The notes: a model not told the origin generated them from the sequence alone. A stretch of DNA of 64,000 nucleotides from an uncultured bacterium (GCA_964605705.1 CAZSDW010000002.1:64145-128144), one strand, 5' to 3'; positions 6,092 through 49,708 are shown, numbered from the stretch's first letter. Translations and numbers: made by a program.

Positions 6092-6985
6092 ATGCAACAT
6101 TTAGTCCGAGATTTTATAAATTACCTGAAAATAGAACGCAATCTGTCCGGAAATACTATCGATGCGTATCGTAATGATCTGGAGCGCTACTGCCAGTTTC
6201 TGCAAGAGCATGATATCAAGCGTCCCGATCAGATAGATATCAAAATTATACAAAATTTTATCAGTACCCTGGCGGAAGTTGGATTGGTAGCCAGCAGCCT
6301 GTCCCGGAACTTTTCGTCAATTCGCTCCTTCCATAGGTTTATGGTTGGAGAAAATATTATTAAGACGAATCCGACAGAGCTTATCCAATCACCGCGATTA
6401 CCGGCGAGATTGCCGAAAATCCTGGACCTGCATGAAATCGAAGCGATTATGGAAGCAATAGATACCGATACCAACAAGGGTATTCGGGACCGTGCTATTA
6501 TCGAAACACTGTATTCGACGGGAATCCGTATTTCTGAACTGATCTCATTACCCATGCAGAGTATTTTTTTCCAGCATAAAGTCATCCGGGTTTTTGGCAA
6601 GGGTTCGAAAGAACGGATTGTTCCTTTTGGCGAACGGGCGCATAAATATCTGAAGAATTATATTTCCGCGGTGCGATCCCTGCTGGTGCGGGCGGGGCAA
6701 AGTGGTGATATACTGTTTTTGAATATGCGTGGTGCGCCGCTGTCCCGGATGGGTGTCTGGAAAATTATCCAGGTTTATGTAAAACTCGCCGGAATCAAAA
6801 AACAGGTCAGTCCGCATGTGTTTCGGCACTCCTTTGCGACACATTTGCTTGAAGGAGGCGCCAACCTGAGAGCGGTCCAGGAAATGTTAGGACATTCCAA
6901 TATTACGACAACCCAGATCTATACTCATCTTGACCGGGAGTACCTGATCGAGCAACATCGAACTTTTCATCCGAGGTGGCAATGA
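6092..6985 (+). CDS. Tyrosine site-specific recombinase XerC/XerD
   Basis: Phage-integrase fold with R...HxxR...Y catalytic residues (RHSFATHLLEGGANLRAVQEMLGHSNITTTQIYTHL). Confidence 0.85.
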   Translation: MQHLVRDFINYLKIERNLSGNTIDAYRNDLERYCQFLQEHDIKRPDQIDIKIIQNFISTLAEVGLVASSLSRNFSSIRSFHRFMVGENIIKTNPTELIQSPRLPARLPKILDLHEIEAIMEAIDTDTNKGIRDRAIIETLYSTGIRISELISLPMQSIFFQHKVIRVFGKGSKERIVPFGERAHKYLKNYISAVRSLLVRAGQSGDILFLNMRGAPLSRMGVWKIIQVYVKLAGIKKQVSPHVFRHSFATHLLEGGANLRAVQEMLGHSNITTTQIYTHLDREYLIEQHRTFHPRWQ

Positions 6986-17314: not shown

Positions 17315-17315
17315 G

Positions 17316-18095
17316 ATGATGAAGCAATTAAAAATACTATTTTTTATCCTGGCGGTTTGCCTGATAGGGATGAATACCTGTGATTTGCCGACTGATCCGG
17401 GACCGATGCCCAAAGATTTGATCGATACAAGATTTGAACCGGGACTGAATATTTTTGGTGTTTTGCGGGCGGACAGCGTCAGCGGCAGCTCCTTTATCCA
17501 TGTGGAGAAAGCGCTCCTGACAGAAGAGATGTATAGCGAATCGGATATATTTGATTCGACAGTTATTGTTCAGGTAACTGACACGCTGACCGGTGAAACG
17601 TTTGATTTTAATGCAATTGAGGATACAACGCATCGCGGATACTATTATAATGATGAATTTTATCCCGAGCCCGGACATTATTACACGATTGAAATCCAAT
17701 CGGACAGTTTGCCAACACTGACCGCCGGGACGACAGTTCCGATGCAGCCACAGATCACTTCAAGTACTCTTTCAATTGAAACTAACAAAGTATGCTTTGA
17801 TCTGCAGCTGACTGCGGATACTTATCAATATAACTTTTACCTGTTCGTGGGCGAAGATATCATTGAAAAACAGATTGCCAATGACAAATCCGGTACGACC
17901 ACAGTAAGCATTGATTTTCCCGAATCCGCAGGTTCCCCAACCGGATTGGTTATCATCGGATACGACCGGAACCTGACGGAGTATTTGAATTCCTCACCAG
18001 CTTTTATACCCCAAACCTTTCACGAAATGGTCAATACAGTTAAAAACGGCTACGGATGTTTTGGGTCGCTGGCGGTGATGACAATTGGATTATAG
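17316..18095 (+). CDS. DUF4249-like lipoprotein commonly paired with CarbopepD_reg TonB-dependent receptors
   Basis: Signal peptide plus lipobox-like NTCD, ~260 aa, position immediately after the receptor; the family call is from memory. Confidence 0.5.
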   Translation: MMKQLKILFFILAVCLIGMNTCDLPTDPGPMPKDLIDTRFEPGLNIFGVLRADSVSGSSFIHVEKALLTEEMYSESDIFDSTVIVQVTDTLTGETFDFNAIEDTTHRGYYYNDEFYPEPGHYYTIEIQSDSLPTLTAGTTVPMQPQITSSTLSIETNKVCFDLQLTADTYQYNFYLFVGEDIIEKQIANDKSGTTTVSIDFPESAGSPTGLVIIGYDRNLTEYLNSSPAFIPQTFHEMVNTVKNGYGCFGSLAVMTIGL

Positions 18096-18124
18096 ATGAC
18101 TTCAAATATTCTCCCCGGAGAGTT

Positions 18125-18164
18125 GAAACCTTCACAAGGATAAAAATTATCCTTCTGAAGGTTC
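18125..18164. repeat. Imperfect palindromic repeat, copy A (gaaaCCTTcacAAGGATAA-aaa-TTATCCTTctgAAGGttc); candidate bidirectional terminator / insertion boundary
   Basis: ~18-bp arms with a 3-nt loop, seen directly; a related copy lies at 20227..20297. Confidence 0.6.
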
Positions 18165-18190
18165 AGAGTTCGGAAATGCTAAACTGGGAA

Positions 18191-18643
18191 TTATTTTCTT
18201 AATTTCAGTCTGTTGATTTCCTGCTGGATTTCGGGGATTACTTCCTGATTATGGATGACTTTTTTCCCGTCATGTTTGATTGAGAACAGGTAAAAAACTT
18301 TGCCACCAAATTCTTGGGTGAATTTTTTGTGGGTTTCTTTTTGAAATCCTTTTTCTTTGTAGATTTGGGAAATATGTGTGACTCCACTGACCGGTTTGAT
18401 TTGTAATCCAATGTACTTGTCGAAGATTTTTATAAAGAAATCAACGTTGTACAATCGATCCCAGTTGTCCGGCGCCGGTTCGATTTTAACTTCGAGTAAT
18501 TTTTGTAATTGTCCGTATATTGTATTTATTTCAGTAGTATAGCCGTCAAATGTTCGATCAATAACTAACTGGTATATGTAATTGATGCAATCATCTTCGG
18601 TGATGTTTTCCACTTCAGCAGCGATGACTTCTGTAATTTTCAC
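18191..18643 (-). CDS. Hypothetical 150-aa protein, candidate cognate restriction endonuclease or specificity partner of the adjacent methyltransferase (GTG start)
   Basis: Co-directional and 180 bp downstream of the MTase in an AT-rich island. A possible degenerate PD-...QxK arrangement (NVD...LQIK) is only suggestive. Confidence 0.35.
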   Translation of the reverse strand: MKITEVIAAEVENITEDDCINYIYQLVIDRTFDGYTTEINTIYGQLQKLLEVKIEPAPDNWDRLYNVDFFIKIFDKYIGLQIKPVSGVTHISQIYKEKGFQKETHKKFTQEFGGKVFYLFSIKHDGKKVIHNQEVIPEIQQEINRLKLRK

Positions 18644-18822
18644 ATAGAGTTTGCGTCCGAGTTCTTCGATATGGTCACGTGTTCTGACGTTTTTAAATTA
18701 TATGTTCGCCATGTATCAATATCTCTTTGGGAGAACATTTTCGGATTTCTTCGGAAACGGCGCCGACATTCCGCTTAAAATTCAATTGAAAGCGGTTCAT
18801 TGCCGAGTTAAGGATCCATTCT

Positions 18823-20124
18823 TTAGCCATGAGCTGCTCGCAGATAGTCATGAAATTTGTTCATATATTTGTAATCATAGTGGTCGTCCACATCCGTCAG
18901 ACCATTTTTTAACAAGTGGGCGTTGATAAAGGTTTTATTTTTCAGATAAAGGTAACAAAGTAAATTATTTTCTTCGTCGTGTTTTATTTTGTCGAATTTT
19001 AAAAATACTTTCTGACCATTTAATTTTTCTTTAAGATAATTGACTGCCTTACCGTTTTGTGATTTATCTTCTTTTATACCAAGTAATCGGACGGTTAATC
19101 CATTATTTAATAATATTTTTTCAGGAGAAATAACCTCTTTTACGGTATAATAATCTTCCCGTTCATGGTTACTATTCGTGTCAATCCGTGAACCGAAATT
19201 CAATTTTTTAGGATCAATTTTTTTATCCAGATCATGGGGGTCTTTAAAAATGTAGGTAAGTTTTTGAATTTCTTTTTTGAAGTCGATTTTAAGATTAGAC
19301 TGTTCGAGAAAATCAAAGCTTGTTCCGAATATATCAGACTGATCCATATTTAATTTTTTCCTGATAATTGGAATAAACTCTTTGTTTATTTCATATCCAA
19401 TTGAACTTCTTCCGGTATTTAATGCTGCCAGGGAAGTAGTCCCACTACCCAGAAAAGGATCGAGGACGATATCGCCGACAAAGGAAAACATTCTCAATAA
19501 GCGCCGTGGTAATTCCTCAGGAAACATTGCTATATGTCCATCTTGTTTCGCACCTCCGAAATTCCAGTGTCCTGAAAAGTAGTTATTCCATTCCTCCTTG
19601 GTTAATCTGGATAATTCCTTATTTTCACGGCTTGGTTTTTTGGATGTTCCCAATTTTTTAAAAATTAGAATAAATTCATAATCAATTTTTAGGATTCCAT
19701 TCCTTGGAAAGGGGAAGCTGCCCATTATTGTCGCTCCGCCGCTTGTGTTGGTAGTAGTCACTTTTTGCCAGATAATAGCTCCCATATAGTCGAATCCAAT
19801 ACTTTCACAGAATTTTATAATTTCGGTTCTGATTGGAATGACTTTGTATCTACCATAGTAAATCGACCTTGCGAATTGGTCTCCAATATTGATGCAGAGT
19901 CGGCAACCATTATCTAAAACACGATAACATTCTTTCCATACAAGGTTTAAATTATTTATATAATTTTCGTAAGTATCGTTGTAACCTATTTGTCGTTTAG
20001 TACCATAGTCCTTTAATTGCCAATACGGAGGAGAAGTAATTACTAAATGTACTGATTTTTCGGGCAATTCTGCCATTTGTCGGCTATCGCCGTTGATTAT
20101 TTTATGATGGGTTTTCACGTTCAA
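18823..20124 (-). CDS. Beta-class DNA methyltransferase (N4-cytosine/N6-adenine type) fused to a C-terminal staphylococcal-nuclease-like OB-fold domain
   Basis: SPPY (motif IV) precedes DPFLGSGTT (motif I), the beta-class order. C-terminal ~100 aa (TVRLLGIKEDKS...VFLKFDK...LLCYLYLKNKTFINAHLLKNGL) mirrors the SNase fold pattern but lacks the DTPE/Arg catalytic residues. Confidence 0.8.
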   Translation of the reverse strand: MNVKTHHKIINGDSRQMAELPEKSVHLVITSPPYWQLKDYGTKRQIGYNDTYENYINNLNLVWKECYRVLDNGCRLCINIGDQFARSIYYGRYKVIPIRTEIIKFCESIGFDYMGAIIWQKVTTTNTSGGATIMGSFPFPRNGILKIDYEFILIFKKLGTSKKPSRENKELSRLTKEEWNNYFSGHWNFGGAKQDGHIAMFPEELPRRLLRMFSFVGDIVLDPFLGSGTTSLAALNTGRSSIGYEINKEFIPIIRKKLNMDQSDIFGTSFDFLEQSNLKIDFKKEIQKLTYIFKDPHDLDKKIDPKKLNFGSRIDTNSNHEREDYYTVKEVISPEKILLNNGLTVRLLGIKEDKSQNGKAVNYLKEKLNGQKVFLKFDKIKHDEENNLLCYLYLKNKTFINAHLLKNGLTDVDDHYDYKYMNKFHDYLRAAHG

Positions 20125-20226
20125 AATTTAGCTTCGTACTTAGATTGTATTTTTAATATAATGAAATTCGAAATGATTCACAACAGTCGCTGTGCTCTCT
20201 CATAATGACTGGAAATTTTGGATTTG

Positions 20227-20297
20227 GAACCTTTAGAAGGATAACAATAAATTTGCAGTTTGTCAGAAAATCGGTCAAATATCCTTCTGAAGGTTCC
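20227..20297. repeat. Palindromic repeat, copy B (gaaCCTTtagAAGGATAA - 35 bp spacer - TATCCTTctgAAGGttcc)
   Basis: Same arms as copy A, in direct orientation, separated by a 35-bp insert; directly abuts the DUF2804 stop. Confidence 0.6.
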
Positions 20298-20313
20298 CCG
20301 TTAGTTTATATTC

Positions 20314-21363
20314 CTACCACCGGTTCATGACCTTTTCCGCAAAGCCGAGGAAATCGCTCATGATGATTTCCTTTCCGTCATCCAGAATTGCTTTTCCGGA
20401 AAACCTGCCAATGACCTGGTGCTGATCGGATTGCAGAAACAGCAGGTTGGTGTTGGAATGACGATCAAGAATGGGCTGAAAATCCATCTCAAAGCGGCTG
20501 TCATTGCTGCTGAAAGTCCAGGATTTCAGGTAGCTGTCGGCGGGAATGTGAAATTCCACCTGGTCGAGTTTATGGACCTTACCATTGAAGAATAGCAGGT
20601 TTTCGGTGGCTCTCGACGTATCGCCGAAGCCGTAACCGATATTGAAGCCGAAAAGATCATTGCCGACTTTTCCTGAAGCGGAGCCCCAGTACCAGGTGTT
20701 ATTATAAGTCCAGACGCCGCGTCCCCAGTCGAGCACACCGAAGGATTTCCGCGGATCGAAAGGTATTGTTCGGTCACCGAGCGTCAACTTACCTTCGGCA
20801 GGCATGCAGTTAACTTTCTGGTTATAGTAAAAGGCGTGCTTATTTTTCGGAAAGGGCGTTGCTATGACCATAGTTTCATAACGATCCGGTTGATTTAGCC
20901 GGATATTCGCCTCCAGTGTCTGCTTATCTTTGAAGTTCCTGAAGGCAACTTCGATAAGCCGCTCTTCTTTCTTCCTGATAAATTTCATCGAAACGGTTTT
21001 GTTTTCAAAAAGGACATCGCCGGTTTTTGATGATACGGGCATCTTGAATTTTCCCAAGGGGAATAGGGTAATCAGGTCTTTGGATATCTCTTCCGGTTTC
21101 TCAAAATCAAAGACTGTGGCAGCAATGAATCCCATATAACCATTATCAGCGATGGTAAAGGACACTCCGGCATTATCCGAAAGAATACAGTAGTAATCCC
21201 ATTCCTTGATTTTAAATCTGGGTGCTTTTATATCATTCCGGCTATACTCAAGAATTAGATCTCTCGACCAGCCGGGATTGTTCGGAACGCCATCGGAATT
21301 GAGCAGTCGTGCGGGAGAGATAATTTCAGTTTGCATAGTGCCTCTTTTTCTATTTATAGCCAT
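20314..21363 (-). CDS. DUF2804-like hypothetical protein
   Basis: ~340 aa with Trp/Gly-rich blocks (NNTWYWGSASG, FGFNIGYGFGD) remembered for DUF2804; start may be the internal Met at 21334. Confidence 0.45.
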   Translation of the reverse strand: MAINRKRGTMQTEIISPARLLNSDGVPNNPGWSRDLILEYSRNDIKAPRFKIKEWDYYCILSDNAGVSFTIADNGYMGFIAATVFDFEKPEEISKDLITLFPLGKFKMPVSSKTGDVLFENKTVSMKFIRKKEERLIEVAFRNFKDKQTLEANIRLNQPDRYETMVIATPFPKNKHAFYYNQKVNCMPAEGKLTLGDRTIPFDPRKSFGVLDWGRGVWTYNNTWYWGSASGKVGNDLFGFNIGYGFGDTSRATENLLFFNGKVHKLDQVEFHIPADSYLKSWTFSSNDSRFEMDFQPILDRHSNTNLLFLQSDQHQVIGRFSGKAILDDGKEIIMSDFLGFAEKVMNRW

Positions 21364-21503
21364 CTGGAGTCAAATATTCATCAGAAAGGAATGAATGTCA
21401 ATGATTTTGCACGTGAATAATTGTAATTACTTTAGATGCAAATAAATCAGAAATTGTTTAAGTTTGAATTGTTAAAAGATTATAACAAGGAGAGAGGATT
21501 GCT

Positions 21504-21734
21504 ATGGAAAATAGCCTGAAGTTCAAACTGATTATTGGGCTGGTCATTGCCGCGCTGGTTGTCGTTTTTATCGTACAGAATGTTGCCGTCGTTGACATTA
21601 AATTTTTATTCTGGAAACTGTCTATGTCCCGGTCTTTAATGATGTTTTTCCTGGTCATTATCGGGATGATCGCCGGCTGGTTCTTAAAAGGAGCAGCTGT
21701 TCGCCGGAAGAATGAGCATCTTGATAATTCATAA
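21504..21734 (+). CDS. LapA-domain (DUF1049) small inner-membrane protein
   Basis: 76 aa with two TM helices matching the LapA-type pattern. Confidence 0.55.
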   Translation: MENSLKFKLIIGLVIAALVVVFIVQNVAVVDIKFLFWKLSMSRSLMMFFLVIIGMIAGWFLKGAAVRRKNEHLDNS

Positions 21735-21760
21735 GGGATATTCCGTAGAAGGATAATAAT

Positions 21761-23131
21761 TTGAAAGCAGTACTTCTAAGCATTGTTCTTGCGTTGATAT
21801 ATGGATTGTGTTATCTCGCTGGTCTTGATTTTTTACATACCTGGGTGACGCTGGTTTTTTCCGGATCAATTCTGGGAACCCTGCTGTTCTGGGATTTGCG
21901 GCTCAGCTTCATGTTTATCGGCAGCGCCTTACTGTTTCTCGGTGGAAATGTCGATCTGGGGCATTTTATTCAGTATGCCTCCTTCGATGTTATCCTCTTT
22001 CTGGTCGGGATGATGATTGTTGTCGCGATGGTAAAAAATTCCGGAATATTTCATTTAACTCTGCAACATCTCATGCGACTTCCGAAAATGAACGGATTAT
22101 TTCTATTCGTTATTATACTGGGTACCGGAGCGCTTCTTTCGGCATTAATGGGAGAGATTGCGTCAACCCTGATCCTGATAGTAATTATTTTTGATATTTG
22201 TGCTCAACTCGATTTAGATCCGATTCCGCTGGTCATTGCCTCGGTTGTCACCACTAATATTGGATCAGCCGCAACGCTTTTAGGTAATCCGGTCGGCGTT
22301 TTGATTGCGCTCAGGGCAAATCTGTCGTTTGTGGATTTTTTAACCCATGCCCTTCCGGTAACGTTAATCGTTTTGTTAATTACGATTGCCATATTATTCA
22401 TGTGGTTTAGAAAATATGTCAAGGAATTGTCTATAAAATTAGTGGACCAACGATCCCGGTTGGTTTCCATGCCAATGACCGAAATTGATCGGGATTCGAT
22501 TGCCAGCCTGATTGTTTTTGGGATTACGATTCTTGCGATTTCGATCCATTCGGTTTTGGAAAGATGGTTGCATGTTGCGGATAATGACCTGCTGATAATG
22601 ATCCCTGTTTGTGCCGCCGGAGTTGTGATGGCAATACGCAAAGAGCAGGTTCACCAGTATATCGAAAAAGAAGTTGAATGGACATCATTACTGTTTTTCA
22701 TTTTTCTGTTTGCCGAAACCGGTGTGCTGCAGGCTTCTGGACTGGCGGATAAAGTTGGGCAGGGGATATTAAACATTGCAGGAGAATCGACCCGCTTATT
22801 GCAGGGAATCACCCTCGTCGCGACCGGTCTCCTCTCCAGCGTGCTGGATAATACAGTAGTTGTTGCAACATTTATTCCCTTGGTAAAAGGCATGGGTGAT
22901 GCCGGAATTCAAATCGGTTCGTTGTGGTGGTGTATCCTGTTTGGCGCCTGTATCGGAGGTAATATCACCACCATTGGTTCAGCCGCCAATATTGTCGCAA
23001 TCGGATTACTGGAAAAGGAAAAGAAATTGACCATACCATTCATGAAGTGGTTGTGGATCGGTTTGCTGACCGGCTTCATCGGATTTCTGGTCAGTTTCGG
23101 TGCGGTCTTACTCTTTCCGGTATTTCGATAG
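21761..23131 (+). CDS. ArsB/NhaD-superfamily anion permease (polytopic transporter)
   Basis: 456 aa, ~12 TM helices, duplicated permease halves. Confidence 0.6.
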   Translation: MKAVLLSIVLALIYGLCYLAGLDFLHTWVTLVFSGSILGTLLFWDLRLSFMFIGSALLFLGGNVDLGHFIQYASFDVILFLVGMMIVVAMVKNSGIFHLTLQHLMRLPKMNGLFLFVIILGTGALLSALMGEIASTLILIVIIFDICAQLDLDPIPLVIASVVTTNIGSAATLLGNPVGVLIALRANLSFVDFLTHALPVTLIVLLITIAILFMWFRKYVKELSIKLVDQRSRLVSMPMTEIDRDSIASLIVFGITILAISIHSVLERWLHVADNDLLIMIPVCAAGVVMAIRKEQVHQYIEKEVEWTSLLFFIFLFAETGVLQASGLADKVGQGILNIAGESTRLLQGITLVATGLLSSVLDNTVVVATFIPLVKGMGDAGIQIGSLWWCILFGACIGGNITTIGSAANIVAIGLLEKEKKLTIPFMKWLWIGLLTGFIGFLVSFGAVLLFPVFR

Positions 23132-23189
23132 TTATTGCCGGGTATTGAGCATACCGGAGAGGATAAAGTTTATTAATGAGGAGCTTCTT

Positions 23190-23654
23190 ATGATTAAAAA
23201 ACATTTGCATTTCGGCATAATGTTCGGTTTAATCTGTATAATTTGTGTGCAATTTTCCTGTGATCGGAGGGAGTCTGGCGCTGCTCAGAAAAATGAGGAA
23301 AAATTTTTCGCTCTAACCCATTTTCTGAATGAAAATATTGATGAGGGGATTGTGTTTGTTTCCATGGATGGAATGATTCAGGAGGCGAATCAGAAATATC
23401 TTGATCTCATCGGCTATCCATTGGAAGAAGCCCGTCAATTGACCTACGAGCAGATTACACCGGAAAAGTGGCATGCCATGGAAAATGACCTGAGAATCAA
23501 CCAGGTCATGAAACGCGGCTTCTGTGATGTTTATGAAAAGGAATATATCCGTATGGATGATTCGCTTGTATCGATCATGACCCAAGCCTGGCTGATTAAA
23601 GATGAAGCCGGAAATCCCTGGCGCTTGATGGGAATTATCCGTCAAATTGATTGA
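23190..23654 (+). CDS. PAS-domain protein with N-terminal signal/lipobox-like segment
   Basis: SD GAGGAG 7 nt before ATG 23190; hydrophobic N-terminus ending in FSC; PAS-like core (VFVSMDGMIQEANQKYLDLIGYPLEE). Confidence 0.55.
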   Translation: MIKKHLHFGIMFGLICIICVQFSCDRRESGAAQKNEEKFFALTHFLNENIDEGIVFVSMDGMIQEANQKYLDLIGYPLEEARQLTYEQITPEKWHAMENDLRINQVMKRGFCDVYEKEYIRMDDSLVSIMTQAWLIKDEAGNPWRLMGIIRQID

Positions 23655-23687
23655 TAATAAGCTCGATTCGGTTTCAGTTATATTTTG

Positions 23688-24863
23688 ATGAAGAAGATTT
23701 TCCCGTATTTTGGAGTACTTGTATTTTTTCTGTCCGGTTGCGCCCCGACCATTAAAGAATTTCGTTACAATGAAAATATTCATGCCTATGAGGCGACGAC
23801 CCAAAAGAAATCAGTATCCTCCAAAAACTGGTTTGTTCTCCGGCAGGGCACGGATCGGAAAAAGGTGGATAATTATGAAATTGCCGAAGCGCTGGTTGGC
23901 AATTATAATGGATCTTTTTTTCGGGATATTATAAATATCAGCCTGCACGGCAACCAGTTGCCGCCGATTGCCAAACCTTATTTATCCGGGAAAATATATT
24001 TCAAGGCAATTGATTTGTATAAACAGCGAAATTATCCCGCTGCGCTCCATGAATTCAGAAAAGCATTATGGTCCTATAATGATCTGAATTATATCTCCGA
24101 TGTCAATTACCTGATGGGATTATGTTCGAAAAATTCGGGAGATTTGGAATCGGCGGAATTTTACTTTCAGCAGTTTATGGATTATTCAGAAAGCATCTGC
24201 CCTAAAACCTTCAATCTTGATTATCAAAATAGCCAGAACTTTGATACGCTGCTTATAAAGGCAGAAATCCCGGAGGATCACTTTTCCTGTCACTACGATC
24301 GACCGGCTTTATACCAGCATTATTTTCCCGGTTATATCAGCCCTTATGGAAATCGAATAAATATTGGATTGCGGATTGGCTATATTTATCCGGGAAAAAC
24401 TGTCGGACTGATTGAACTGCGTAGTATTTTATGGAAAGACCTGCAGTACCGATTCGGGATGGGTAATATTTATCAATACTTGCGAGTTGACTATCAATTT
24501 TATAAAAATTCCGATAATACGGTTGGCATTTTACCATTTGTCGAATTTTCATCACAAGACGTCACTTTTGATGATGGTAATAAAATTGTCTTTTATCAGG
24601 TCAATCCGGGGATCGAGATCGGATACTTTCCGTACCCTCGTCTGGGATTATACGGCGGCGCCCGTTATTATCGCTGGAACGAGGAGAACAAATATTCCGA
24701 ATTGAACGAAAGTGGTTCGTATCAGGTGTGGAATAATAATGAACTGTTTGCCGGCGCGGGTATTTTCCTCCTGGACCATTTCGGGCTGCTTATTGAACTG
24801 ACCCATCGGGGTGATATTCACATGGGAATTTATATGAGTGGGGGACAGTTCTGGTTTCGATAA
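23688..24863 (+). CDS. Lipoprotein with TPR-like helical repeats followed by a predicted beta-barrel-like region
   Basis: Lipobox LSGC; TPR-like Y/A/L periodicity in residues ~90-170. Confidence 0.45.
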   Translation: MKKIFPYFGVLVFFLSGCAPTIKEFRYNENIHAYEATTQKKSVSSKNWFVLRQGTDRKKVDNYEIAEALVGNYNGSFFRDIINISLHGNQLPPIAKPYLSGKIYFKAIDLYKQRNYPAALHEFRKALWSYNDLNYISDVNYLMGLCSKNSGDLESAEFYFQQFMDYSESICPKTFNLDYQNSQNFDTLLIKAEIPEDHFSCHYDRPALYQHYFPGYISPYGNRINIGLRIGYIYPGKTVGLIELRSILWKDLQYRFGMGNIYQYLRVDYQFYKNSDNTVGILPFVEFSSQDVTFDDGNKIVFYQVNPGIEIGYFPYPRLGLYGGARYYRWNEENKYSELNESGSYQVWNNNELFAGAGIFLLDHFGLLIELTHRGDIHMGIYMSGGQFWFR

Positions 24864-24896
24864 ACGATGAGATTTCGAATTAACTGAGAGTCTGGC

Positions 24897-25247
24897 ATGA
24901 AAAATAAAGGAATTGTTTATTCGACCGATCAGGGCAGAATGTGTCCCGATTGTGGTCGCCCGAAGGACCAATGTGATTGCCGGCAGAGTCACTCCGTGCA
25001 AATTGGTAATGGAATCGTTCGAATCAGCCGGGAAACCAAAGGTCGTAAGGGTAAAGGCGTAACATTGATCACCGGAATTCCGATGAACGAAATAGAGTTA
25101 AAATTTCTGGCAAAGGAGCTGAAAATCAAATGTGGTTCCGGTGGAACCGTCAAAAATGGTATCATCGAAATTCAGGGCGATCAGCGGGACAAACTGGTCG
25201 AAGAATTACAGGTTAGAGGCTGGACTGTTAAGCAGGTTGGAGGATAG
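24897..25247 (+). CDS. SUI1/YciH family translation initiation factor
   Basis: 116 aa; N-terminal Cys cluster, GRKGKGVT and SUI1-fold C-terminus (CGSGGTV...IQGDQRDKL). Confidence 0.8.
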   Translation: MKNKGIVYSTDQGRMCPDCGRPKDQCDCRQSHSVQIGNGIVRISRETKGRKGKGVTLITGIPMNEIELKFLAKELKIKCGSGGTVKNGIIEIQGDQRDKLVEELQVRGWTVKQVGG

Positions 25248-25385
25248 TGTTTTCAGAAAAGACTCCCAAAGGATTTTCCAAAAAAGTCTTGTTTGACAAA
25301 CCTGGAGAAGATTATCGGAACTTGACAATAATCCTAAAGCATATTAGTTTTTCGAGTTAATAAAAATTATTCAAGGAGGAAATCC

Positions 25386-26504
25386 ATGAAACGGTATGAT
25401 AACATTTTTTTATTGTTCTGTTTGTTGATGATCACGGCTGGAATACTTCACGCTGAAAATTTGCAGGTCAGTTTTATCAATCTGACCCACGGCAGTCGTA
25501 TCCCGGAATGTCAAAATAAACTTATCAGACTCAACGCATCTGTCGATAGCAGCAGTATTGATAAAATTGAGGTTTATGCAAGTGGGAGTCGGGTGTTCAC
25601 AGCCCGGAGTGAACCCTGGGAAGGTGAATGGGCTAATCCGCTCTCCGGATATTACCAGGTCTGGGCAAGAGTGGAAGATGTAAACGATAATGTGGCTTTT
25701 TCCGATACTATTGGTGTTGTTGTTGGCGATTTGATTGATGGCGATCTTATCTTGAATGGTACGTTCAATTGTGCCTCCAGATATTGGAATAAACAGGATA
25801 ACGCCGGTGCATCGAGTACAATGACCAGGGTGGAAGATGCTGAAATAGCCGAAGGTGCGGCAATGTTAATAGATATCATTAATCCCGGAACGGAAGACTG
25901 GCATGTTCAACTGCTTCAGAATTTTCCAATTGATTCGGGACATATCTACGAAATCTCCTTTGTGGCTGAAACCGCCGGGAGCCGGGATATCCAATATGTT
26001 TTCCAGGAAAATACCGGTGAATACACCTTTCACAGAGGGGAGCAGGTTACATTAACCGGGAATGGCTTTTATGGGCCCTATACCTGGGAATGTAATGTTA
26101 CCGATCCGAATTGTGCGTTTCGATTTTATCTCGGTAACAGTACGGCTTATGTTTATTTTGATGATATTTCAATCATTGATCTATCCGTAGAATTTCCGGA
26201 CGAGGCATCGGCAATAAAAGCTGAAGCTATCAAAGCCGATAAATATCAACTCGGATTGAAAAACTATCCCAATCCATTCAATCCATTTACTACTATTGCC
26301 TATGAACTACCGGTTAAATCCAATGTCACCCTGGCTGTCTATGACATTACAGGTCAATTAGTTGAGACGCTAGTGAGTCGTTACCAGAATTCAGGACAGC
26401 ATTTTATCCAATGGGATGGCACCGATTACAGCTCCGGTGTTTATTTATATCAGATTGAGACAGCTGATTTTCGTCAGGTCAAAAAGATGATTTTGATGAA
26501 ATAG
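25386..26504 (+). CDS. Secreted protein with CBM4/9-like carbohydrate-binding region and T9SS C-terminal sorting domain
   Basis: Signal peptide; C-terminal ~80 aa (NYPNPFNPFTTIAY...VYDITGQLVETL...WDGTDYSSGVYLYQIE) matches the type-A T9SS sorting-domain pattern. Confidence 0.7.
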   Translation: MKRYDNIFLLFCLLMITAGILHAENLQVSFINLTHGSRIPECQNKLIRLNASVDSSSIDKIEVYASGSRVFTARSEPWEGEWANPLSGYYQVWARVEDVNDNVAFSDTIGVVVGDLIDGDLILNGTFNCASRYWNKQDNAGASSTMTRVEDAEIAEGAAMLIDIINPGTEDWHVQLLQNFPIDSGHIYEISFVAETAGSRDIQYVFQENTGEYTFHRGEQVTLTGNGFYGPYTWECNVTDPNCAFRFYLGNSTAYVYFDDISIIDLSVEFPDEASAIKAEAIKADKYQLGLKNYPNPFNPFTTIAYELPVKSNVTLAVYDITGQLVETLVSRYQNSGQHFIQWDGTDYSSGVYLYQIETADFRQVKKMILMK

Positions 26505-26512
26505 GTTTTCAA

Positions 26513-26617
26513 ACCTTGCGAAGGTAGAACTTCGTGCTTATACTGAAGCCGGAAATTAATCCGGATCAACCGGTTATTTATGAAGGCGATCAGATTGTGT
26601 TATCCCGTCCATAAATG
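26513..26617. repeat. Upstream member of an imperfect inverted-repeat pair flanking the GH2 gene (contains ACCTTGCGAAGGT hairpin and TTATCCC motif)
   Basis: Its reverse complement aligns at ~60-65% by eye with 29694..29776, including the exact 13-mer ACCTTCGCAAGGT. Confidence 0.5.
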
Positions 26618-26741
26618 TTTAAGTTATTTAGTCATTTTCAACGGAAAAATATTGATAAAAATATTTACAAGAATTCCATGCTTAATTTGATGCTGGTTAT
26701 TCCGGTGCTAACAATGTCAAACTAACAGAAATAATTTTATT

Positions 26742-29633
26742 ATGATTAAAAAAATATTTTGCACGATAATTGTTATGTTCCTGATTGTAAATTCTTTTTG
26801 TCAGGGAAAAGACAGTTCTGAAGAAACAAACAACAGGGAACACATCCTAATGGATTCCGGATGGTTGTTCGCCTATGGCAATTCTTTTGATGCATCAAAA
26901 GATTTCAATCACGGGACAGCTTATTTTTCCTACTTTGCCAAAGCAGGTTACGGCGACGGCGCTGCCGCTCAAAACTTTGACGACCGCGCCTGGCGGAAAC
27001 TTGATCTTCCCCACGATTGGTGTGTTGAACTGCCCTTTGATTCATTGGGAGGGCATAGCCATGGATATAAAGCTATTGGAAGGAATTTTCCTGAGAACAG
27101 CGTTGGATGGTACCGTAAATCTTTTTTTATTCCTGAATCTGACCTTGGCAAACGGATATCCATTGAATTTGACGGGGTGTTCCGTAATTCCATCGTCTGG
27201 GTAAACGGATTTTATTTGGGGACCGAACATAGCGGCTATATAAGTTTCAGATACGATATTACCGATTACCTGAATTATGGAGGCATCAATGTTATTGCTG
27301 TTCGTGTTGACGCTACAATGGAAGAGGGGTGGTTCTATGAAGGAGCGGGAATTTACCGGCATGTCTGGCTTTCAAAAACATCTCCTTTGCACGTCAAACG
27401 ATATGGTACCTTTGTCACAACAGAATTGAAGGATAAATCCGCGTTCATAACTGCCAGAACAACCGTTGTAAATGAATCCAGCAAAAACGCTGTCTTCGAT
27501 ATAGAAGAAACAATTGTGGATTCAACTGGAACAGCTATTGCGACCGGCGATCATAAACAATTGACATTAGCTGCCGGTGGCGAGAACGAATTTTTCAGCG
27601 AGTACAAAATTGACAATCCCAAATTGTGGTCTATCGAAATGCCTTACCTGCATAAACTAAAAACCGTAATCCGCTCTGCTGGAAAAGTCGTAGATAGTTA
27701 TGAAACTACTTTTGGGATTCGTACGGTAAGATTCGATGCGAATGAAGGTTTTTTCCTAAACGACAAACATGTAAAAATTATGGGTGTATGTCTTCACCAG
27801 GATCATGCCGGTGTTGGAGTTGCCATACCCGATGCTTTACAGGAGTACCGCGTTAAAAGGTTAAAAAGTATGGGCGCTAATGGCATACGCACATCGCATA
27901 ATCCGCCTGCACCGGAATTATTGGATGCCTGTGACCGCCTGGGTATGCTTGTCCTCGATGAGAACAGATTAATGGGCAGTAATGAAGAACATTTCAGTTG
28001 TCTCGAACGCCTTATAAAAAGAGACCGGAACCATCCCAGTGTAGTCTTATGGTCGTTCGGCAACGAAGAATGGGGTATTGAATCAAATATCAAGGGCGCC
28101 CGGGTTACAACTTCTATGCAAAATTTTGCCCAACTCCTCGACTCTTCGCGTGCTTTTACAGTTGCCCTTAGCGGCGGATGGGATAATGGAAGCGGAATGA
28201 TTCCACAGGTAATTGGATACAATTATATCTTTCATGGCGACATTGATGAACACCATGCAAACTTTCCCTGGCAGGCAAGTGTTGGAACAGAAGAAACCAA
28301 TACTCATCAAACACGGGGTATTTATATAACTGACGAAAACAAATCTTTTGTAGCGCCGATCGATGAACCGCCGCGAAATCTCGGAGCCGAATTCGGTTGG
28401 AAATATTACACTGACCGCCCATTCCTTTCCGGATTATTTTACTGGACTGGATTTGACTACCGGGGTGAATCGAATCCTTTTAACTGGCCTGCCGTTATCA
28501 ATCAATCCGGTAGCTTCGATTTATGCGGTTTGCAGAAAGATATTTACTATTACTATAAATCATGGTGGGGAAACGAACCGGTATTGCATATTCTGCCTCA
28601 CTGGAACTGGAAAGGAAATGAAGGCAAGGAAATAAATGTTACCGTATATAGCAATTGCGAGCAGGTAGAATTGTTCCTGAACAATAAAAGTCAGGGAAAA
28701 CAAACTATGCCGATTAACGGGCATCTCGCATGGAAAGTTAAATATCAACCCGGGATTTTACTTGCACGTGGATACAAAGGTGGTAAAAAAATTATCACGG
28801 ATAAAGTTGAAAATACTGGCAATGCCTCAAGTGTTCAACTTTCTGCTGATCGGAATATTATTAATGCTGATGGTGAAGATGTGTCCGTCATTACTGTAAA
28901 AGTTTCCGATGCCGGTGGTTTGACAGTTCCAACCGCAGATAATCAAATCAATTTTACATTGGAGGGACCGGGAAAAATAATTGGTGTTGGGAACGGCGAC
29001 CCTACTAGTCATGAACCTGACAGGTTCTTTGAGTCGGTAAAAGCGGTAAAGATTGAAAACCTGAAAGAGCTGGCTGTTGACAATCTTAATAACAGACCGG
29101 GAGTTAATCCCGGAATTGATGATTCGTCATGGAAACCGGCGTTTAAAAGCAGCAGAAATGATGATTGGCAATTATACAAGGACACTCTTCTTGTGGTTCG
29201 CGGAACTGTTGAGTTACCGGCTTTTACCGACCGCACCCAAATTAATCTTTTTACGAAAAGTATTGTTGAAGGACAATCGATTTATATAAATGGACATTTA
29301 ATTGCTGCCAATATTAAACGTGACGATCCAAATCAATCATTCCGGCTCGACCATTCCATTATAAAACCGGGTAAAAATATTTATGCTGTGGTAGGTAAAA
29401 GGTTCAGGAAAACCTATCAATGGGATGAACCGAATACCGATCCGGGGTTAATTCAAGTTATCGATCCTGCAGGTCAATGGAAAAGGAAGTTATTTAACGG
29501 TTTGGCTCAGGTACTTGTTCAATCTTCAAAACAACCCGGAGAAATAATATTGTCTGCGGTTTCATCCGGATTAAAACCGGCAGTAATTAAAATTAAAACA
29601 CAAGAAGTAGTATTAAAAGATACTCAATGGTAA
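26742..29633 (+). CDS. Glycoside hydrolase family 2 (beta-galactosidase/beta-mannosidase/beta-glucuronidase-like), secreted
   Basis: 963 aa, signal peptide, sugar-binding N-terminal region, TIM-barrel acid/base motif WSFGNEEWG. Confidence 0.8.
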   Translation: MIKKIFCTIIVMFLIVNSFCQGKDSSEETNNREHILMDSGWLFAYGNSFDASKDFNHGTAYFSYFAKAGYGDGAAAQNFDDRAWRKLDLPHDWCVELPFDSLGGHSHGYKAIGRNFPENSVGWYRKSFFIPESDLGKRISIEFDGVFRNSIVWVNGFYLGTEHSGYISFRYDITDYLNYGGINVIAVRVDATMEEGWFYEGAGIYRHVWLSKTSPLHVKRYGTFVTTELKDKSAFITARTTVVNESSKNAVFDIEETIVDSTGTAIATGDHKQLTLAAGGENEFFSEYKIDNPKLWSIEMPYLHKLKTVIRSAGKVVDSYETTFGIRTVRFDANEGFFLNDKHVKIMGVCLHQDHAGVGVAIPDALQEYRVKRLKSMGANGIRTSHNPPAPELLDACDRLGMLVLDENRLMGSNEEHFSCLERLIKRDRNHPSVVLWSFGNEEWGIESNIKGARVTTSMQNFAQLLDSSRAFTVALSGGWDNGSGMIPQVIGYNYIFHGDIDEHHANFPWQASVGTEETNTHQTRGIYITDENKSFVAPIDEPPRNLGAEFGWKYYTDRPFLSGLFYWTGFDYRGESNPFNWPAVINQSGSFDLCGLQKDIYYYYKSWWGNEPVLHILPHWNWKGNEGKEINVTVYSNCEQVELFLNNKSQGKQTMPINGHLAWKVKYQPGILLARGYKGGKKIITDKVENTGNASSVQLSADRNIINADGEDVSVITVKVSDAGGLTVPTADNQINFTLEGPGKIIGVGNGDPTSHEPDRFFESVKAVKIENLKELAVDNLNNRPGVNPGIDDSSWKPAFKSSRNDDWQLYKDTLLVVRGTVELPAFTDRTQINLFTKSIVEGQSIYINGHLIAANIKRDDPNQSFRLDHSIIKPGKNIYAVVGKRFRKTYQWDEPNTDPGLIQVIDPAGQWKRKLFNGLAQVLVQSSKQPGEIILSAVSSGLKPAVIKIKTQEVVLKDTQW

Positions 29634-29693
29634 TAAAGAAAAAGCCGGAAAACGGTTTTTAAAATAAGCTTCATCATAAGTTGTTAATTACAA

Positions 29694-29776
29694 TTTATCA
29701 GGATAACAATAGTTTTATGACCAACCCGATTATCCATGGATATTTTGCCGATCCTATCGGGAAACCTTCGCAAGGT
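29694..29776. repeat. Downstream member of the inverted-repeat pair flanking the GH2 gene (GGATAACAAT ... ACCTTCGCAAGGT)
   Basis: Shares the GGATAACAAT 10-mer with the R-M flank at 20239..20248 and the CCTT-N3-AAGG core with all four repeat copies. Confidence 0.5.
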
Positions 29777-29784
29777 CGAAGTAT

Positions 29785-32184
29785 CTATTCGTATCGCAAC
29801 GCTCGCGCCGGATTGATCAAGGCGGTTTTAATTGCCTGGTAACTGACTGTCAGGAATGCGATGACCAGAGCAGCAAAGGCAGCGATAACGAAGGCAGTAA
29901 CTCCAATGCCCGTGCGATAGGCAAAATTCTGCAGCCATTTGCTCATGACCCAGTAGGATAGTGGAATTGCAATGACATTTGACAGTAGAACCAGGCTCAG
30001 AAAATCTCTGGAAATCAGGTAAACCAAGCCGGGAACAGTCGAACCCAGCACTTTTCGAATGCCGATCTCTTTCGTCCGTTGAGTTGCCAGAAATGCGGTC
30101 AGTCCGAACAGTCCCAGGCAGGCGATAATGATTGCCAGAATTGTCAAGACAACGCTCAGCTGTCCGAATTTCTCTTCGTTATTATACAGGTTATAGATTT
30201 CCTGGTCCAGGAATGAATATTCAAAAGGACGGTCGGGCTCAAATTCCCGCCACTTCTCCTCAAGAAAAGGAATTACTTCCTGATAATTATCGGTATTAAC
30301 CCGGACACCGATGTAGCGCATAAATCCACGAAAGCGCGGCGGTACTATATCCAGAATAAAAGTTGATTCCGGTTTGTGCAGCGACATGGCTTTGAAGTTT
30401 TTGAATACACCGATTACTCGTTCATTACCGTTGCTGCGGATACTGCGACCAATGGCGTTTTCATTGGTCCAGCCGAGATGCTGTACCATGGCTTCATTGA
30501 TCATTATGGCTTCCGTCGTGTCAGCCGGAAACTCCCGGGAAAATGATCGACCGGAAACGACTTCGATGTCAAAGGTTTCCAGAAAGTCATATTTTACAAA
30601 AAATCCCGGATAGTAGAGTGGTTTATCGGGATCATATCCTTCAATAAAAAACTGGCGGGTGTTATGGTCAACGCCGAGCAGGTCTTCCATACCAACCGCA
30701 TTGACGACCTTGGGATGCTGTTTGACTTCATTGATAAAGGCTTCGTACTGGCGCAGAATTCCGGTATTGAACACTGGCATCGTAATGATATGGTCTTTCG
30801 TGAATCCCAGATCGGCGTTGCGCATATATCGAATTTGTCTGAATACGATTAGCGTTCCTATGATCAATGCGATCGAAATAGTGAATTGCACGATGACGAG
30901 TATTTTTCGGGACAATGCGCTCTTGCTGCCTTTGGATAGTGTACCTTTTAGAACCTTAACCGGCTGGAACGCGGAAAGAAAGAATGCCGGATAAAGACCG
31001 GAGCTGATTCCTAAAATGATTCCCAATCCTAACACCAGGATAAGATTTCCGGGTTTCAGGAATATCGCTGGTGTGAATAATTTGCCCGCAAAATTGTTGA
31101 ATGGTGTCAGAAGAATCAGCATGAGAATCAGGGCGACTATCAGGGCGAGGTAAGCAGTGACGATGGATTCTCCAAGGAACTGCGTAATTAACTGTGGACG
31201 ATTGGCACCCAGGACCTTTTTAATGCCGATCTCTTTGGCTCTGCCAGCCGATGCGGCAGTTGCTAAATTCATAAAATTAATGCTGGCAATTACCAGGATG
31301 AAAACCGCGATTGCCGATAAGAGATAGATGTAAGTAATGTTGCTGTTCTGCCGGATTTCGTAAACAAGGTTGGAGTGCAGGTGGATATCCGTAAGTTTTT
31401 GCAGATGAAGAGTGATATCCTGGTTAGGAAAATCAAAATAGTGATTTTGATGAAATTCAGGAAAACGTTCGACGAGTTGGGCTGGATCAACGCCATCTTC
31501 GAGTACAATATAGGTCCAGCAGGGATTCCAGATCCAGGTTTGGGGATATTGACCACCGAATATCTGGGGAATTGTGTTCATGGATGCCAGGAAATCAAAT
31601 ATAAAATGAGATTGGGTTGGCAGATCTTTAATGACTCCCGTGATCTCAAATTCGCCTTGACGCTCAACGGTTAACCTTTTTCCGAGCGGGTTCTCGTCAC
31701 CAAAATATTTCCGGGCTGTACTTTCGGTGACCAGGACGGTGAATGGTCGATCGAGAGCGCCGTCAGGATTACCAAGTATGAATTCATAATCAAATACATC
31801 GAAAACAGTGGAATCCGCCAGGAAAAACCGCCTCTCATTGAATTTTTTCTGTTCGTGCTCCACCATCAGTTTGGGTGTCTGAAAATTGAAAAACCGCACA
31901 ACATTTTTAATCATTGCCGGATAAGCTGCCTGAAGCGCAGGTCCCGCAGGCCAGGAGAGAGTCGCGGCATCTTCTTCAACACCATTGGCAATATAGAGTC
32001 GGCAAACCCGATAAATCCGTTCGGCTTTACTGTGGTATTTATCATAAGAGATTTCATCGACGATATAGAAAAGAATGAACAGAAAACTGGCAATGCCAAT
32101 CGCGAGCCCGCCGATATTTAAAAATGAATAAATCTTATATCGGAAAATACTCCGCCAGGCGATTTTCAAATAATTTTTAAACAT
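29785..32184 (-). CDS. FtsX-family ABC transporter permease (MacB/LolE-like, duplicated FtsX domains)
   Basis: 799 aa; two 4-TM FtsX modules each preceded by a large periplasmic domain; no ATPase gene adjacent. Confidence 0.85.
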   Translation of the reverse strand: MFKNYLKIAWRSIFRYKIYSFLNIGGLAIGIASFLFILFYIVDEISYDKYHSKAERIYRVCRLYIANGVEEDAATLSWPAGPALQAAYPAMIKNVVRFFNFQTPKLMVEHEQKKFNERRFFLADSTVFDVFDYEFILGNPDGALDRPFTVLVTESTARKYFGDENPLGKRLTVERQGEFEITGVIKDLPTQSHFIFDFLASMNTIPQIFGGQYPQTWIWNPCWTYIVLEDGVDPAQLVERFPEFHQNHYFDFPNQDITLHLQKLTDIHLHSNLVYEIRQNSNITYIYLLSAIAVFILVIASINFMNLATAASAGRAKEIGIKKVLGANRPQLITQFLGESIVTAYLALIVALILMLILLTPFNNFAGKLFTPAIFLKPGNLILVLGLGIILGISSGLYPAFFLSAFQPVKVLKGTLSKGSKSALSRKILVIVQFTISIALIIGTLIVFRQIRYMRNADLGFTKDHIITMPVFNTGILRQYEAFINEVKQHPKVVNAVGMEDLLGVDHNTRQFFIEGYDPDKPLYYPGFFVKYDFLETFDIEVVSGRSFSREFPADTTEAIMINEAMVQHLGWTNENAIGRSIRSNGNERVIGVFKNFKAMSLHKPESTFILDIVPPRFRGFMRYIGVRVNTDNYQEVIPFLEEKWREFEPDRPFEYSFLDQEIYNLYNNEEKFGQLSVVLTILAIIIACLGLFGLTAFLATQRTKEIGIRKVLGSTVPGLVYLISRDFLSLVLLSNVIAIPLSYWVMSKWLQNFAYRTGIGVTAFVIAAFAALVIAFLTVSYQAIKTALINPARALRYE

Positions 32185-35115: not shown

Positions 35116-35312
35116 CAATCTGTTTAGCGGCAAGACTCGTATAATGAGATCGGATGGGATTTGAGTTTCATCCAGTCTCTTTTTTTATTGATAAGGATTA
35201 AAATCCGAGAAAACTACTGGACTTTTTAAGAATCTTCGTCTAAATTTCCGCAACGTAAACAAAGGAGCCTTTTAATCCTAACCCGTGAGTTGGAAAGGGC
35301 ATAAGAAGAAAC

Positions 35313-35348
35313 GATCCGCCTTACAGCAGGTGGATTTTTTTTATTTTT
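35313..35348 (+). terminator. Intrinsic terminator / attenuator immediately upstream of pyrR (PyrR-type pyr leader)
   Basis: Hairpin ATCCGCC-ttacagca-GGTGGAT followed by TTTTTTTTATTTTT; candidate PyrR-binding loop AAUCCUAACCCGUGAG upstream at ~35269..35300. Confidence 0.55.
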
Positions 35349-41744: not shown

Positions 41745-41760
41745 GATTTCGACTGATAAT

Positions 41761-41795
41761 AAAAAAGGGCTTCTGCAGAAGCCCTTTTTTATTTT
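41761..41795. terminator. Bidirectional intrinsic terminator between convergent frr and nrdJ
   Basis: AAAAAA-GGGCTTC-tgca-GAAGCCC-TTTTTTATTTT. Confidence 0.8.
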
Positions 41796-41810
41796 AATGG
41801 AATTATCACT

Positions 41811-44512: not shown

Positions 44513-44586
44513 GCGGGTGTAGTTCAATGGCAGAACACCAGCTTCCCAAGCTGGACACGAGGGTTCGATTCCCTTCACCCGCTCCA
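44513..44586 (+). tRNA. tRNA-Gly (anticodon CCC), CCA encoded
   Basis: Cloverleaf folds by hand: acceptor GCGGGTG/CACCCGC, D-arm GTTCAATGGCAGAAC, anticodon stem CCAGC/GCTGG with loop TTCCCAA, T-arm GAGGG-TTCGATT-CCCTT. Confidence 0.85.
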
Positions 44587-49527: not shown

Positions 49528-49546
49528 GATTAGGCGAATATAATTA

Positions 49547-49708
49547 ATCCTGCAATGGCAGTACGTTCTTAGAACCGTGTTTCGCACGGTGGGCACCTCT
49601 CGAACGATTCAAGTTTCCCCGACTAGGAGGCATGCTTTCCACGCCCGAAGTCCAGCTCCCATATTTACAGTGTTGGTTCTAAAAATATAGGATATGCCAT
49701 TGCAGGAT
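49547..49708. ncRNA. Structured ncRNA candidate with 6S-RNA-like architecture (strand undetermined). The alternative reading is a MITE-like element with 14-bp terminal inverted repeats.
   Basis: Termini ATCCTGCAATGGCA/TGCCATTGCAGGAT pair perfectly; a second stem pairs TTAGAACC with GGTTCTAA; internal local hairpins; lies in the gap between convergent yigZ and mazG. Confidence 0.35.

Follow-up and report, generated by a model that had tools for sequence, protein, structure and literature searches.

Two sets of accessory genes in a 64,000-nucleotide stretch of DNA from an uncultured bacterium (GCA_964605705.1 CAZSDW010000002.1:64145-128144; this whole stretch is called the window below) are bordered by short, related palindromes lying just past the ends of genes. 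One set includes a GH2 glycosidase gene, which appears, from comparison with relatives, to have entered the centre of a palindrome already present between two core genes. The other is a restriction-modification (R-M) unit bracketed by two copies of one palindrome. The explanation that we favor, with moderate confidence, is that these are 3'-end palindromes of the host acting as hot spots of insertion or recombination, and that one of them was duplicated around the R-M unit. The palindromes are a real, local, low-copy feature, rather than a demonstrated genome-wide family of mobile repeats. Homologues of the DUF2804 gene that flanks the R-M unit place the window in Candidatus Marinimicrobia.

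Four palindromic sites within 12 kb

The unit of which all the sites are made is an arm that is itself a small palindrome, (A)ACCTT-NNN-AAGG, with a stem of 4-5 bp; two arms in inverted order give a stem of 15-18 bp. The sites, and a fifth segment related to them, are the following:

18125..18164, no strand: site 1, double palindrome GAAACCTTCACAAGGATAA-AAA-TTATCCTTCTGAAGGTTC
20227..20297, no strand: site 2, arms of the site-1 type, GGAACCTTTAGAAGGATAA ... ATATCCTTCTGAAGGTTCC, around a 36-nt interior
26512..26534, no strand: site 3, single arm AACCTTGCGAAGGT, then AGAA-CTTCG
29694..29745, no strand: probable third copy of the site-1/2 type, decayed, TTTATCAGGATAACAATA ... GATTATCC
29761..29776, no strand: site 4, a lone arm, GAAACCTTCGCAAGGT, whose end is 9 nt from the stop codon of MacB

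The core motif AACCTTNNNAAGG is present six times in the window where 0.13 copies are expected (about 46-fold), and none of 100 shuffles contained as many. Its positions (18127, 18151 on the minus strand, 20228, 20283 on the minus strand, 26512 and 29763) all fall inside the four named intergenic sites, the copy of site 4, at 29763, reading AACCTTCGCAAGGT. CCTTNNNAAGG is counted seven times against 0.99 expected. The 10-mer GGATAACAAT is found at 20239 and 29701 and nowhere else (2 versus 0.20 expected; 1 of 100 shuffles had as many), and GGATAA/TTATCC alone is a 6-mer for which about 30 occurrences are expected in the window. When one mismatch was allowed over the 64 kb, three other matches were obtained, which is fewer than the 4.3 expected, so that there are no hidden degenerate copies beyond chance. 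Thus, a preliminary description of this DNA, which had pointed to a core motif shared by four intergenic sites, to the 10-mer at these two places and to the lack of the motif in the housekeeping intergenic regions inspected, is confirmed on each of these points for this window.

All copies are extragenic, and every one lies 8-30 nt from a stop codon. The genes upstream of them are those for a DUF4249 protein and a restriction endonuclease (REase), convergent at site 1, DUF2804 (site 2), a secreted protein with a C-terminal sorting domain of the type IX secretion system (the T9SS-tail gene; site 3) and MacB (site 4). Lineage-specific DNA adjoins all four motif sites, and the other ~15 intergenic gaps of the window are without the motif.

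Site 1, with two motif matches, is placed between the stop of the DUF4249 gene (plus strand) and that of the REase pseudogene (minus strand). Folded as RNA, it forms a stem of 18 bp that contains one mismatch (-26.1 kcal/mol; z -4.9 on the plus strand and -3.4 on the minus strand, relative to shuffles). Site 2 lies 17 nt past the DUF2804 stop, 103-173 nt upstream of the start of a methyltransferase (MTase) gene, and folds with -24.7 kcal/mol (z -4.1); its sequence is identical in a JGI contig (L121/L139) from the same population as the window. The right arms of sites 1 and 2 have an exact 17-mer, TATCCTTCTGAAGGTTC, in common, and the other arm matches at 15 of 19 positions (arms of 18-19 bp). 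The two sites stand as direct repeats around the R-M genes, as the preliminary description had it.

Sites 3 and 4 each consist of a single arm. The former starts 8 nt past the stop of the T9SS-tail gene, and the AGAA-CTTCG that follows its arm is possibly the remnant of a second one. Site 4 matches the left arm of site 1 at 14 of 15 positions (0 of 500 shuffles as good). Single arms fold weakly (z -0.9 and -1.5, the latter for site 3), in contrast to the double palindromes (sites 1 and 2, and a hairpin of relatives described below), whose folds are far stronger than those of shuffles (z -3.4 to -6.1). The two sites contain an exact 13-mer in inverted orientation (ACCTTGCGAAGGT / ACCTTCGCAAGGT), as had been described; the imperfect inverted pair of about 90 bp that it was thought to belong to did not survive scrutiny, for the local alignment of 26513-26617 with the reverse complement of 29694-29776 consists of the 13-mer only. 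The other piece common to the two regions is an 8-mer, GGATAACA/TGTTATCC, which is not significant alone (109 of 500 shuffles). In the segment 29694-29711 (TTTATCAGGATAACAATA), which holds the second GGATAACAAT, 16 of 18 positions agree with site 2, in its left arm and interior (0 of 500 shuffles); on this resemblance, 29694-29745 probably represents a third, decayed palindrome of the site-1/2 type.

Two accessory modules and their empty sites

The genes around sites 3 and 4 are:

24897..25247, plus strand: SUI1 gene, conserved flank of the T9SS-tail/GH2 insertion (Pfam SUI1 1e-20)
25386..26504, plus strand: T9SS-tail gene, encoding a secreted protein with a T9SS C-terminal sorting domain (Pfam Por_Secre_tail 4e-11); not at this place in relatives
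26742..29633, plus strand: GH2 beta-galactosidase-like gene, between sites 3 and 4 (Pfam GH2 domains)
29785..32184, minus strand: MacB/FtsX permease gene, conserved flank of the T9SS-tail/GH2 insertion (Pfam MacB_PCD, FtsX)

In one lineage of relatives, represented by six contigs (L122-L127), the SUI1 gene is directly convergent with the MacB gene, 70 nt away, and neither the T9SS-tail gene nor GH2 is present; the C terminus of MacB and its 3' flank align with L122. The spacer of these contigs contains one near-perfect 33-nt hairpin, AACCTTGCGAAGGTT-TTG-AACCTTCGCAAGGCT (z -5.2 and -6.1). Its MacB-proximal arm, with the flank as far as the MacB stop, is orthologous to site 4 and aligns with it, including an identical 15-mer, ACCTTGCGAAGGTTT, while its other arm, its spacer and the first bases of its second arm align with site 3. 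The arms, adjacent in the relatives, are 3.2 kb apart in the window, with GH2 between them. Because the arms of a single hairpin of relatives match sites 3 and 4, GH2 would lie inside a split palindrome, whose centre it appears to have entered. Moreover, since this palindrome is intact between core genes in relatives that do not have the module, it is a pre-existing target and not the end of a cassette.

The closest homologues of GH2 (80-81% identity) are located in large glycoside-hydrolase clusters, beside Por_Secre_tail genes. About 100 nt upstream of GH2 (26644-26741) are homologous to the upstream region in one such locus (L143) and moved together with the gene. Between site 3 and the promoter region of GH2, an ORF-like fragment is seen at 26528-26611 on the plus strand (NFVLILKPEINPDQPVIYEGDQIVLSRP, ending in a stop). 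It has no homologue among the loci compared, and may be the remnant of a gene brought in with GH2.

The R-M unit is found between the DUF4249 and DUF2804 genes:

17247..18095, plus strand: DUF4249-family gene, conserved flank of the R-M insertion, assigned by position
18191..18822, minus strand: MjaI-family REase gene, frameshifted (Pfam RE_MjaI 2e-25 on a 150-aa open reading frame, ORF)
18823..20124, minus strand: N4/N6 DNA methyltransferase fused to an SNase domain (Pfam N6_N4_Mtase 5e-44, SNase 2e-6)
20183..20209, no strand: spacer piece E (27 nt; reverse complement GTCATTATGAGAGAGCACAGCGACTGT), common to relative L132
20314..21363, minus strand: DUF2804 gene, conserved flank of the R-M insertion (Pfam DUF2804 4e-141, homologues and synteny)

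The RE_MjaI match covers profile positions 59-159 only, and the N-terminal part of the REase is in another frame when compared to an intact 233-aa homologue in L141; the gene is a probable pseudogene. Its partner, the MTase-SNase gene, is intact, with homologues at 70-77% identity in Pseudomonadota, Chitinophagaceae, Desulfobacterales and other groups, and belongs to a highly conserved and widely transferred type of R-M system. The GC content (37% for the REase and 34% for the MTase gene, versus 43% for the window) and the identity of the MTase homologues across phyla argue that the R-M unit is foreign and horizontally acquired; with its REase frameshifted and its MTase intact, it is decaying to an orphan methylase. 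The R-M region had no match in plasmid and phage databases. A metagenome contig (L138) is a nearly exact match to the window over 17630-19156, including the frameshifted REase (98% mean column identity, counting unaligned ends); L138 and L121 come from the same JGI sample, and their assemblies may not be independent.

Six lineages of syntenic relatives, with DUF2804 proteins about 74-79% identical, have the DUF2804 gene directly convergent with DUF4249, across spacers of 47-275 nt and with no R-M unit between. The DUF4249 gene of relatives adjoins a TonB-dependent receptor gene and is convergent with DUF2804; ORF 17247..18095 of the window has the same position, and its own Pfam scan gave no family. 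With syntenic relatives devoid of the R-M genes, the T9SS-tail gene and GH2, both modules are, by this comparison, accessory and lineage-specific. On the evidence of the six lineages for R-M and of the one lineage (six contigs) for T9SS-tail/GH2, this agrees with the preliminary description, which had taken the gene sets bordered by the palindromes to be accessory.

Spacer piece E, extended by 3 nt, gives a 30-nt local alignment to L132 in which 24 positions are identical (0 of 200 shuffles as good), and it was found at this locus only among the loci compared. In L132 the match begins 16 nt past the DUF2804 stop, whereas in the window site 2 intervenes between this stop and E. We take E, from this alignment, to be ancestral spacer DNA; site 2 would then have been either inserted or copied between the DUF2804 stop and E, or lost from L132. 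The long spacer of L132 holds no R-M gene remnants.

Other features of the relatives' spacers are recorded here. A hairpin at the empty site of L133 was considered as an orthologue of site 1 and set aside, the alignment not being significant. The sequence CCTTCAAAAGG in L129-L131 was likewise discarded: it is the product of the junction of an insertion and unrelated to the sites. This insertion, of about 125 nt, separates ParE from DUF2804 in the lineage of L129-L131 (L129 2887-3010 compared to L134 2353) and may be a mobile element of small size; L129 has an IS110-family transposase gene nearby. GCGTCCTCTGCGGT, a short conserved motif, occurs in the DUF4249-proximal spacers of L122 (11085-11100) and L133 (3040-3055) and is missing from the equivalent spacer of the window.

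These data lead us to the following scheme. In the ancestor, the palindromes would probably have been transcript-end or insulating stem-loops between convergent core genes. In the lineage of the window, two pieces of foreign or relocated DNA would have entered exactly at palindromes: the MjaI-type R-M unit, bracketed by two copies of one palindrome through its duplication or through recombination at it, and GH2, whose entry into the SUI1|MacB palindrome would have left the arms at their present distance. The palindromes would then be fragile or recombinogenic landing sites, and the duplicates insertion scars, rather than the ends of a self-propagating repeat family.

Several points weigh against this scheme. 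The site-1/2 palindrome is not seen, even as one copy, at the empty R-M site of any relative: the six lineages have five different spacer sequences, none with CCTTN3AAGG. This comparison is a weak one, the relatives being only ~78% identical in protein and the spacers too diverged to align, and on both accounts a target duplication by the R-M unit is unproven. Moreover, E stands between site 2 and the MTase gene, which means that site 2 is not at the actual R-M junction, unless E came with the insert. In a check of three junctions for short target duplications, none beyond the palindromes was found for the R-M unit. At the other insertion, the split hairpin does not enclose the T9SS-tail gene, which is located between SUI1 and site 3 and requires a second, separate event; for this gene, the copies of ATAG(T)GTTTTCA past the two stop codons are a marginal direct repeat (52 of 1000 shuffles as good). 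In addition, single arms fold weakly and no palindrome is followed by a T run, so a terminator-like role is not demonstrated, and the genome sequence covered is the 64 kb of the window.

Alternative explanations of the palindromes

The preliminary description had proposed a dispersed family of elements resembling repetitive extragenic palindromes (REPs) or MITEs (miniature inverted-repeat transposable elements). This proposal finds no support, either elsewhere in the window or in the other sequences searched. A 24-base two-arm pattern, which stands for the site-1/2 type (the type covered by the metagenome scan) and recovers sites 1 and 2, hit three contigs in all JGI metagenomes, including the sample that holds this population: L138 and L139, which are the same locus in the same population, and L137, an unrelated hairpin between convergent genes. 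It had no match in IMG/VR. Searching with each site by nhmmer, in 25 loci assembled from protein look-ups and the metagenome scan, gave nothing beyond contigs of the window's own population. No such palindromes are present in the loci of R-M homologues (L140-L142) or of GH2 homologues (L143-L145). From these negative scans and homologue loci it follows that the palindromes do not move with the cargo and that no multi-copy population of them is detectable. The earlier idea of a motif family marking cassette edges therefore stands in part: the palindromes do border accessory modules, but they do not accompany the cargo elsewhere and the site-3/4 type would predate the insertion.

A shorter, 14-base pattern, AACCTTNNNAAGGATAA, was abandoned, as its 120 loci in genome contigs are essentially a chance yield and the distribution of the central triplet is flat. 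They include a handful of palindrome pairs from unrelated phyla (L077, L113, L099, L026) and a single tandem array (L053), in other contexts. The array (L053 380-645, in the Bacteroidetes metagenome-assembled genome contig JAJYIT010000057.1) contains ten palindromes of the CCTTGNCAAGG type, for example AACCTTATCAAGGATAAAAGGGAACCTTGACAAGGGTTCAAGCC, with a spacing that alternates between 21-22 and 29-39 nt, and resembles an iteron or operator array. Near-identical double palindromes, such as ATCCTTGCGAAGGTTTTTAAACCTTCGCAAGGAT, occur at L077 6437-6470, L113 3013-3045 and L099 5970-6002, in genomes of Anaerolineales, Lentisphaeria and Chryseobacterium; at least one of them is immediately upstream of a start codon and its ribosome-binding site. 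Doublets of CCTTGCGAAGG/CCTTCGCAAGG may recur across phyla beyond chance; in IMG/VR, the GCG/CGC doublet matched no more than one hairpin, which is GC-rich.

Non-autonomous mobile palindromes could nevertheless be at work, akin to MITEs or to REPINs (doublets of REPs) and moved in trans by a transposase encoded elsewhere, either a RAYT (REP-associated tyrosine transposase) or a Y1 enzyme of the IS200/IS605 type. The single arms would then be decayed remnants, and pairs of copies would bracket, and perhaps mobilize, accessory genes. We consider this unlikely, as membership fails on copy number, but keep it because the anatomy of the sites is strikingly REPIN-like. As in REPs and REPINs mobilized by RAYTs (PMC3116915, PMC3333891), the copies are all extragenic and the arm is a short palindrome that forms inverted doublets across a spacer of variable length (3 or 36 nt), in sites 1 and 2 as in the L122 hairpin; the singlets could be decayed doublets. 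REPINs have two alternative folds, including a 'clover' form (PMC3116915), and the doublets here could likewise fold as one long hairpin or two small ones. At sites 1 and 2, the arms (18-19 bp) would also qualify as the terminal inverted repeats of a MITE. Arms are related across sites (14/15 between sites 1 and 4, 16/18 between site 2 and 29694-29711), L132 is without site 2 between the DUF2804 stop and E, and the 6-mer AGAGTT directly abuts both ends of site 1 (18119-18124 and 18165-18170). This last is the sole signal resembling a target-site duplication; site 2 and the L122 hairpin show none. Copy number counts against such elements. REPs and REPINs come in tens to hundreds of near-identical copies, compared to four sites in 64 kb here, with no further copy in the window even at one mismatch, none found by nhmmer in the 25 loci, and in the metagenomes this locus plus one unrelated hairpin. 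Neither the dispersed copies nor the autonomous relative expected of a MITE were seen in the sequences searched. The 30 window proteins scanned against Pfam include no RAYT and no transposase; the only recombinase among them is Xer-like and in a housekeeping context. The stem of the unit is only 4-5 bp. REP families have a conserved 5' tetranucleotide, such as GTAG, which the present sites do not have.

The palindromes might more simply be plain intrinsic terminators or 3' stabilizer hairpins, alike through local ancestry and without causal link to insertions that are tolerated in such gaps. Indeed, they have strong stems and the position just past stop codons that is expected of terminators, two of them lie where genes converge, a place in which one palindrome can work for both strands, and in the unrelated contig L137 a hairpin of similar kind separates convergent genes. 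Yet no T tract follows any site (there is no T run after sites 1-3, and a scan flags only a 5-bp alternative stem at 29766-29781), although canonical terminators made of a GC hairpin and a T run, bidirectional and unidirectional, are used elsewhere in the window (41745-41810 and 35116-35346). For these two reasons the motif is not the terminator consensus of the species, in agreement with the preliminary description; within the window, it does not occur at comparable density after housekeeping genes. Rfam gave no match with E <= 1 in 18000-30000, and none at the gathering score at these sites. Furthermore, GH2 is not just anywhere in the gap but has the arms of a 33-nt hairpin on its two sides, and all four motif sites abut lineage-specific DNA when some 15 other gaps have no motif. 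Coincidence of ordinary hairpins with insertions is, in our opinion, quite unlikely.

It has also been considered that the palindromes are sites for a site-specific recombinase acting in trans, at which cassettes without a recombinase of their own move in and out, as in Xer pdif modules or integron attC cassettes. The resemblance lies in the absence of a recombinase from both modules and in their being bracketed by related palindromes; the identical 17-bp core of sites 1 and 2, in direct orientation, is what attL and attR would show, and the L122 hairpin parses as 11-bp inverted arms around a 7-bp centre. An enzyme that could act in this way is encoded in the window:

6092-6985, plus strand: XerC/XerD-like tyrosine recombinase (Phage_integrase and SAM-like N domain), housekeeping context

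In addition, the anticodon arm of tRNAs is a classic target of integrases, and AACC-TTNNNAA-GGTT has that shape. However, any perfect palindrome parses as arms and a centre. The core consensus of attC is RYYYAAC / GTTRRRY (R''/R'). By inspection, the palindromes, which end in GRAACC/GGTTC, have no likeness to this consensus or to that of dif, and neither a cassette array nor an integron integrase is present beside the sites, so that they do not qualify as attC or as a cluster of attC sites without integrase (CALIN). The same cargo genes are found elsewhere without such sites. Finally, GH2 is associated with inverted half-sites and the R-M unit with direct full sites, and one mechanism would not give both. 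We therefore hold such recombination to be very unlikely. A related and equally long shot is that the palindromes are landing pads of an undescribed, low-copy mode of cassette capture in Marinimicrobia, operated by a hairpin-specific enzyme acting in trans: a Y1/HUH, IS110-type or Xer-like enzyme could open the centre of the palindrome and leave either split arms, as around GH2, or duplicates, as around the R-M unit.

An origin of the palindrome from a tRNA was rejected, as the anticodon arm of the window's tRNA-Val(CAC) (57493-57567, minus strand), CCCGTTCACATCGGG, does not match CCTTCACAAGG. A 12-mer that is part of the left arm of site 1, CTTCACAAGGAT, is present 5 nt upstream of this tRNA gene (57572-57583; blast E 0.017 among intergenic regions), which may be a coincidence. 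Other RNA genes of the window are:

44513-44586, plus strand: tRNA-Gly(CCC)
49543-49711, minus strand: 6S RNA
56202-56587, minus strand: RNase P RNA (class A)

Two mechanically called ORFs, 56260-56583 and 56586-57434, run into the RNase P gene or adjoin it; the first at least is spurious, because of this overlap.

Comparison with known systems

The favored explanation, host palindromes at 3' ends as hot spots for incoming DNA, makes the locus a local illustration of known phenomena and not a new system. R-M units flanked by direct or inverted repeats, and their insertion with target duplication, have been documented (PMC2853133). Like the insertions with a long target duplication described there, the unit of the window is a small type II R-M unit of about 2.1 kb between conserved genes, with atypical GC content, missing from syntenic relatives and without a linked integrase or transposase. 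R and M genes (18191-20124) are both within an insert shorter than 20 kb, between direct repeats longer than 30 bp (the palindromes of 40 and 71 bp; 37-68 bp as repeats). The differences are that the repeats are palindromic here, that E separates one of them from the R-M genes, that the REase is already frameshifted, and that a single copy of the repeat at the empty site of a relative could not be shown, in what is a weak test with relatives of ~78% protein identity.

GH2 finds its parallel in extragenic palindromes that serve as insertion targets, namely REPs as targets of insertion sequences (IS) (Tobes & Pareja 2006, PMC1525189). Unlike in those cases, the inserted DNA is not an IS, and has neither a transposase nor terminal inverted repeats of its own. 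As in them, foreign DNA has come to lie within an extragenic palindrome or next to it, with the arms left on both sides, and the split hairpin offers a clean example of a filled site that can be compared with its empty counterpart in an uncultured phylum (Marinimicrobia/SAR406). Should this be general, 3'-end palindromes would help to predict where accessory genes enter streamlined marine genomes, and would flag hot spots of genome plasticity in metagenome-assembled genomes.

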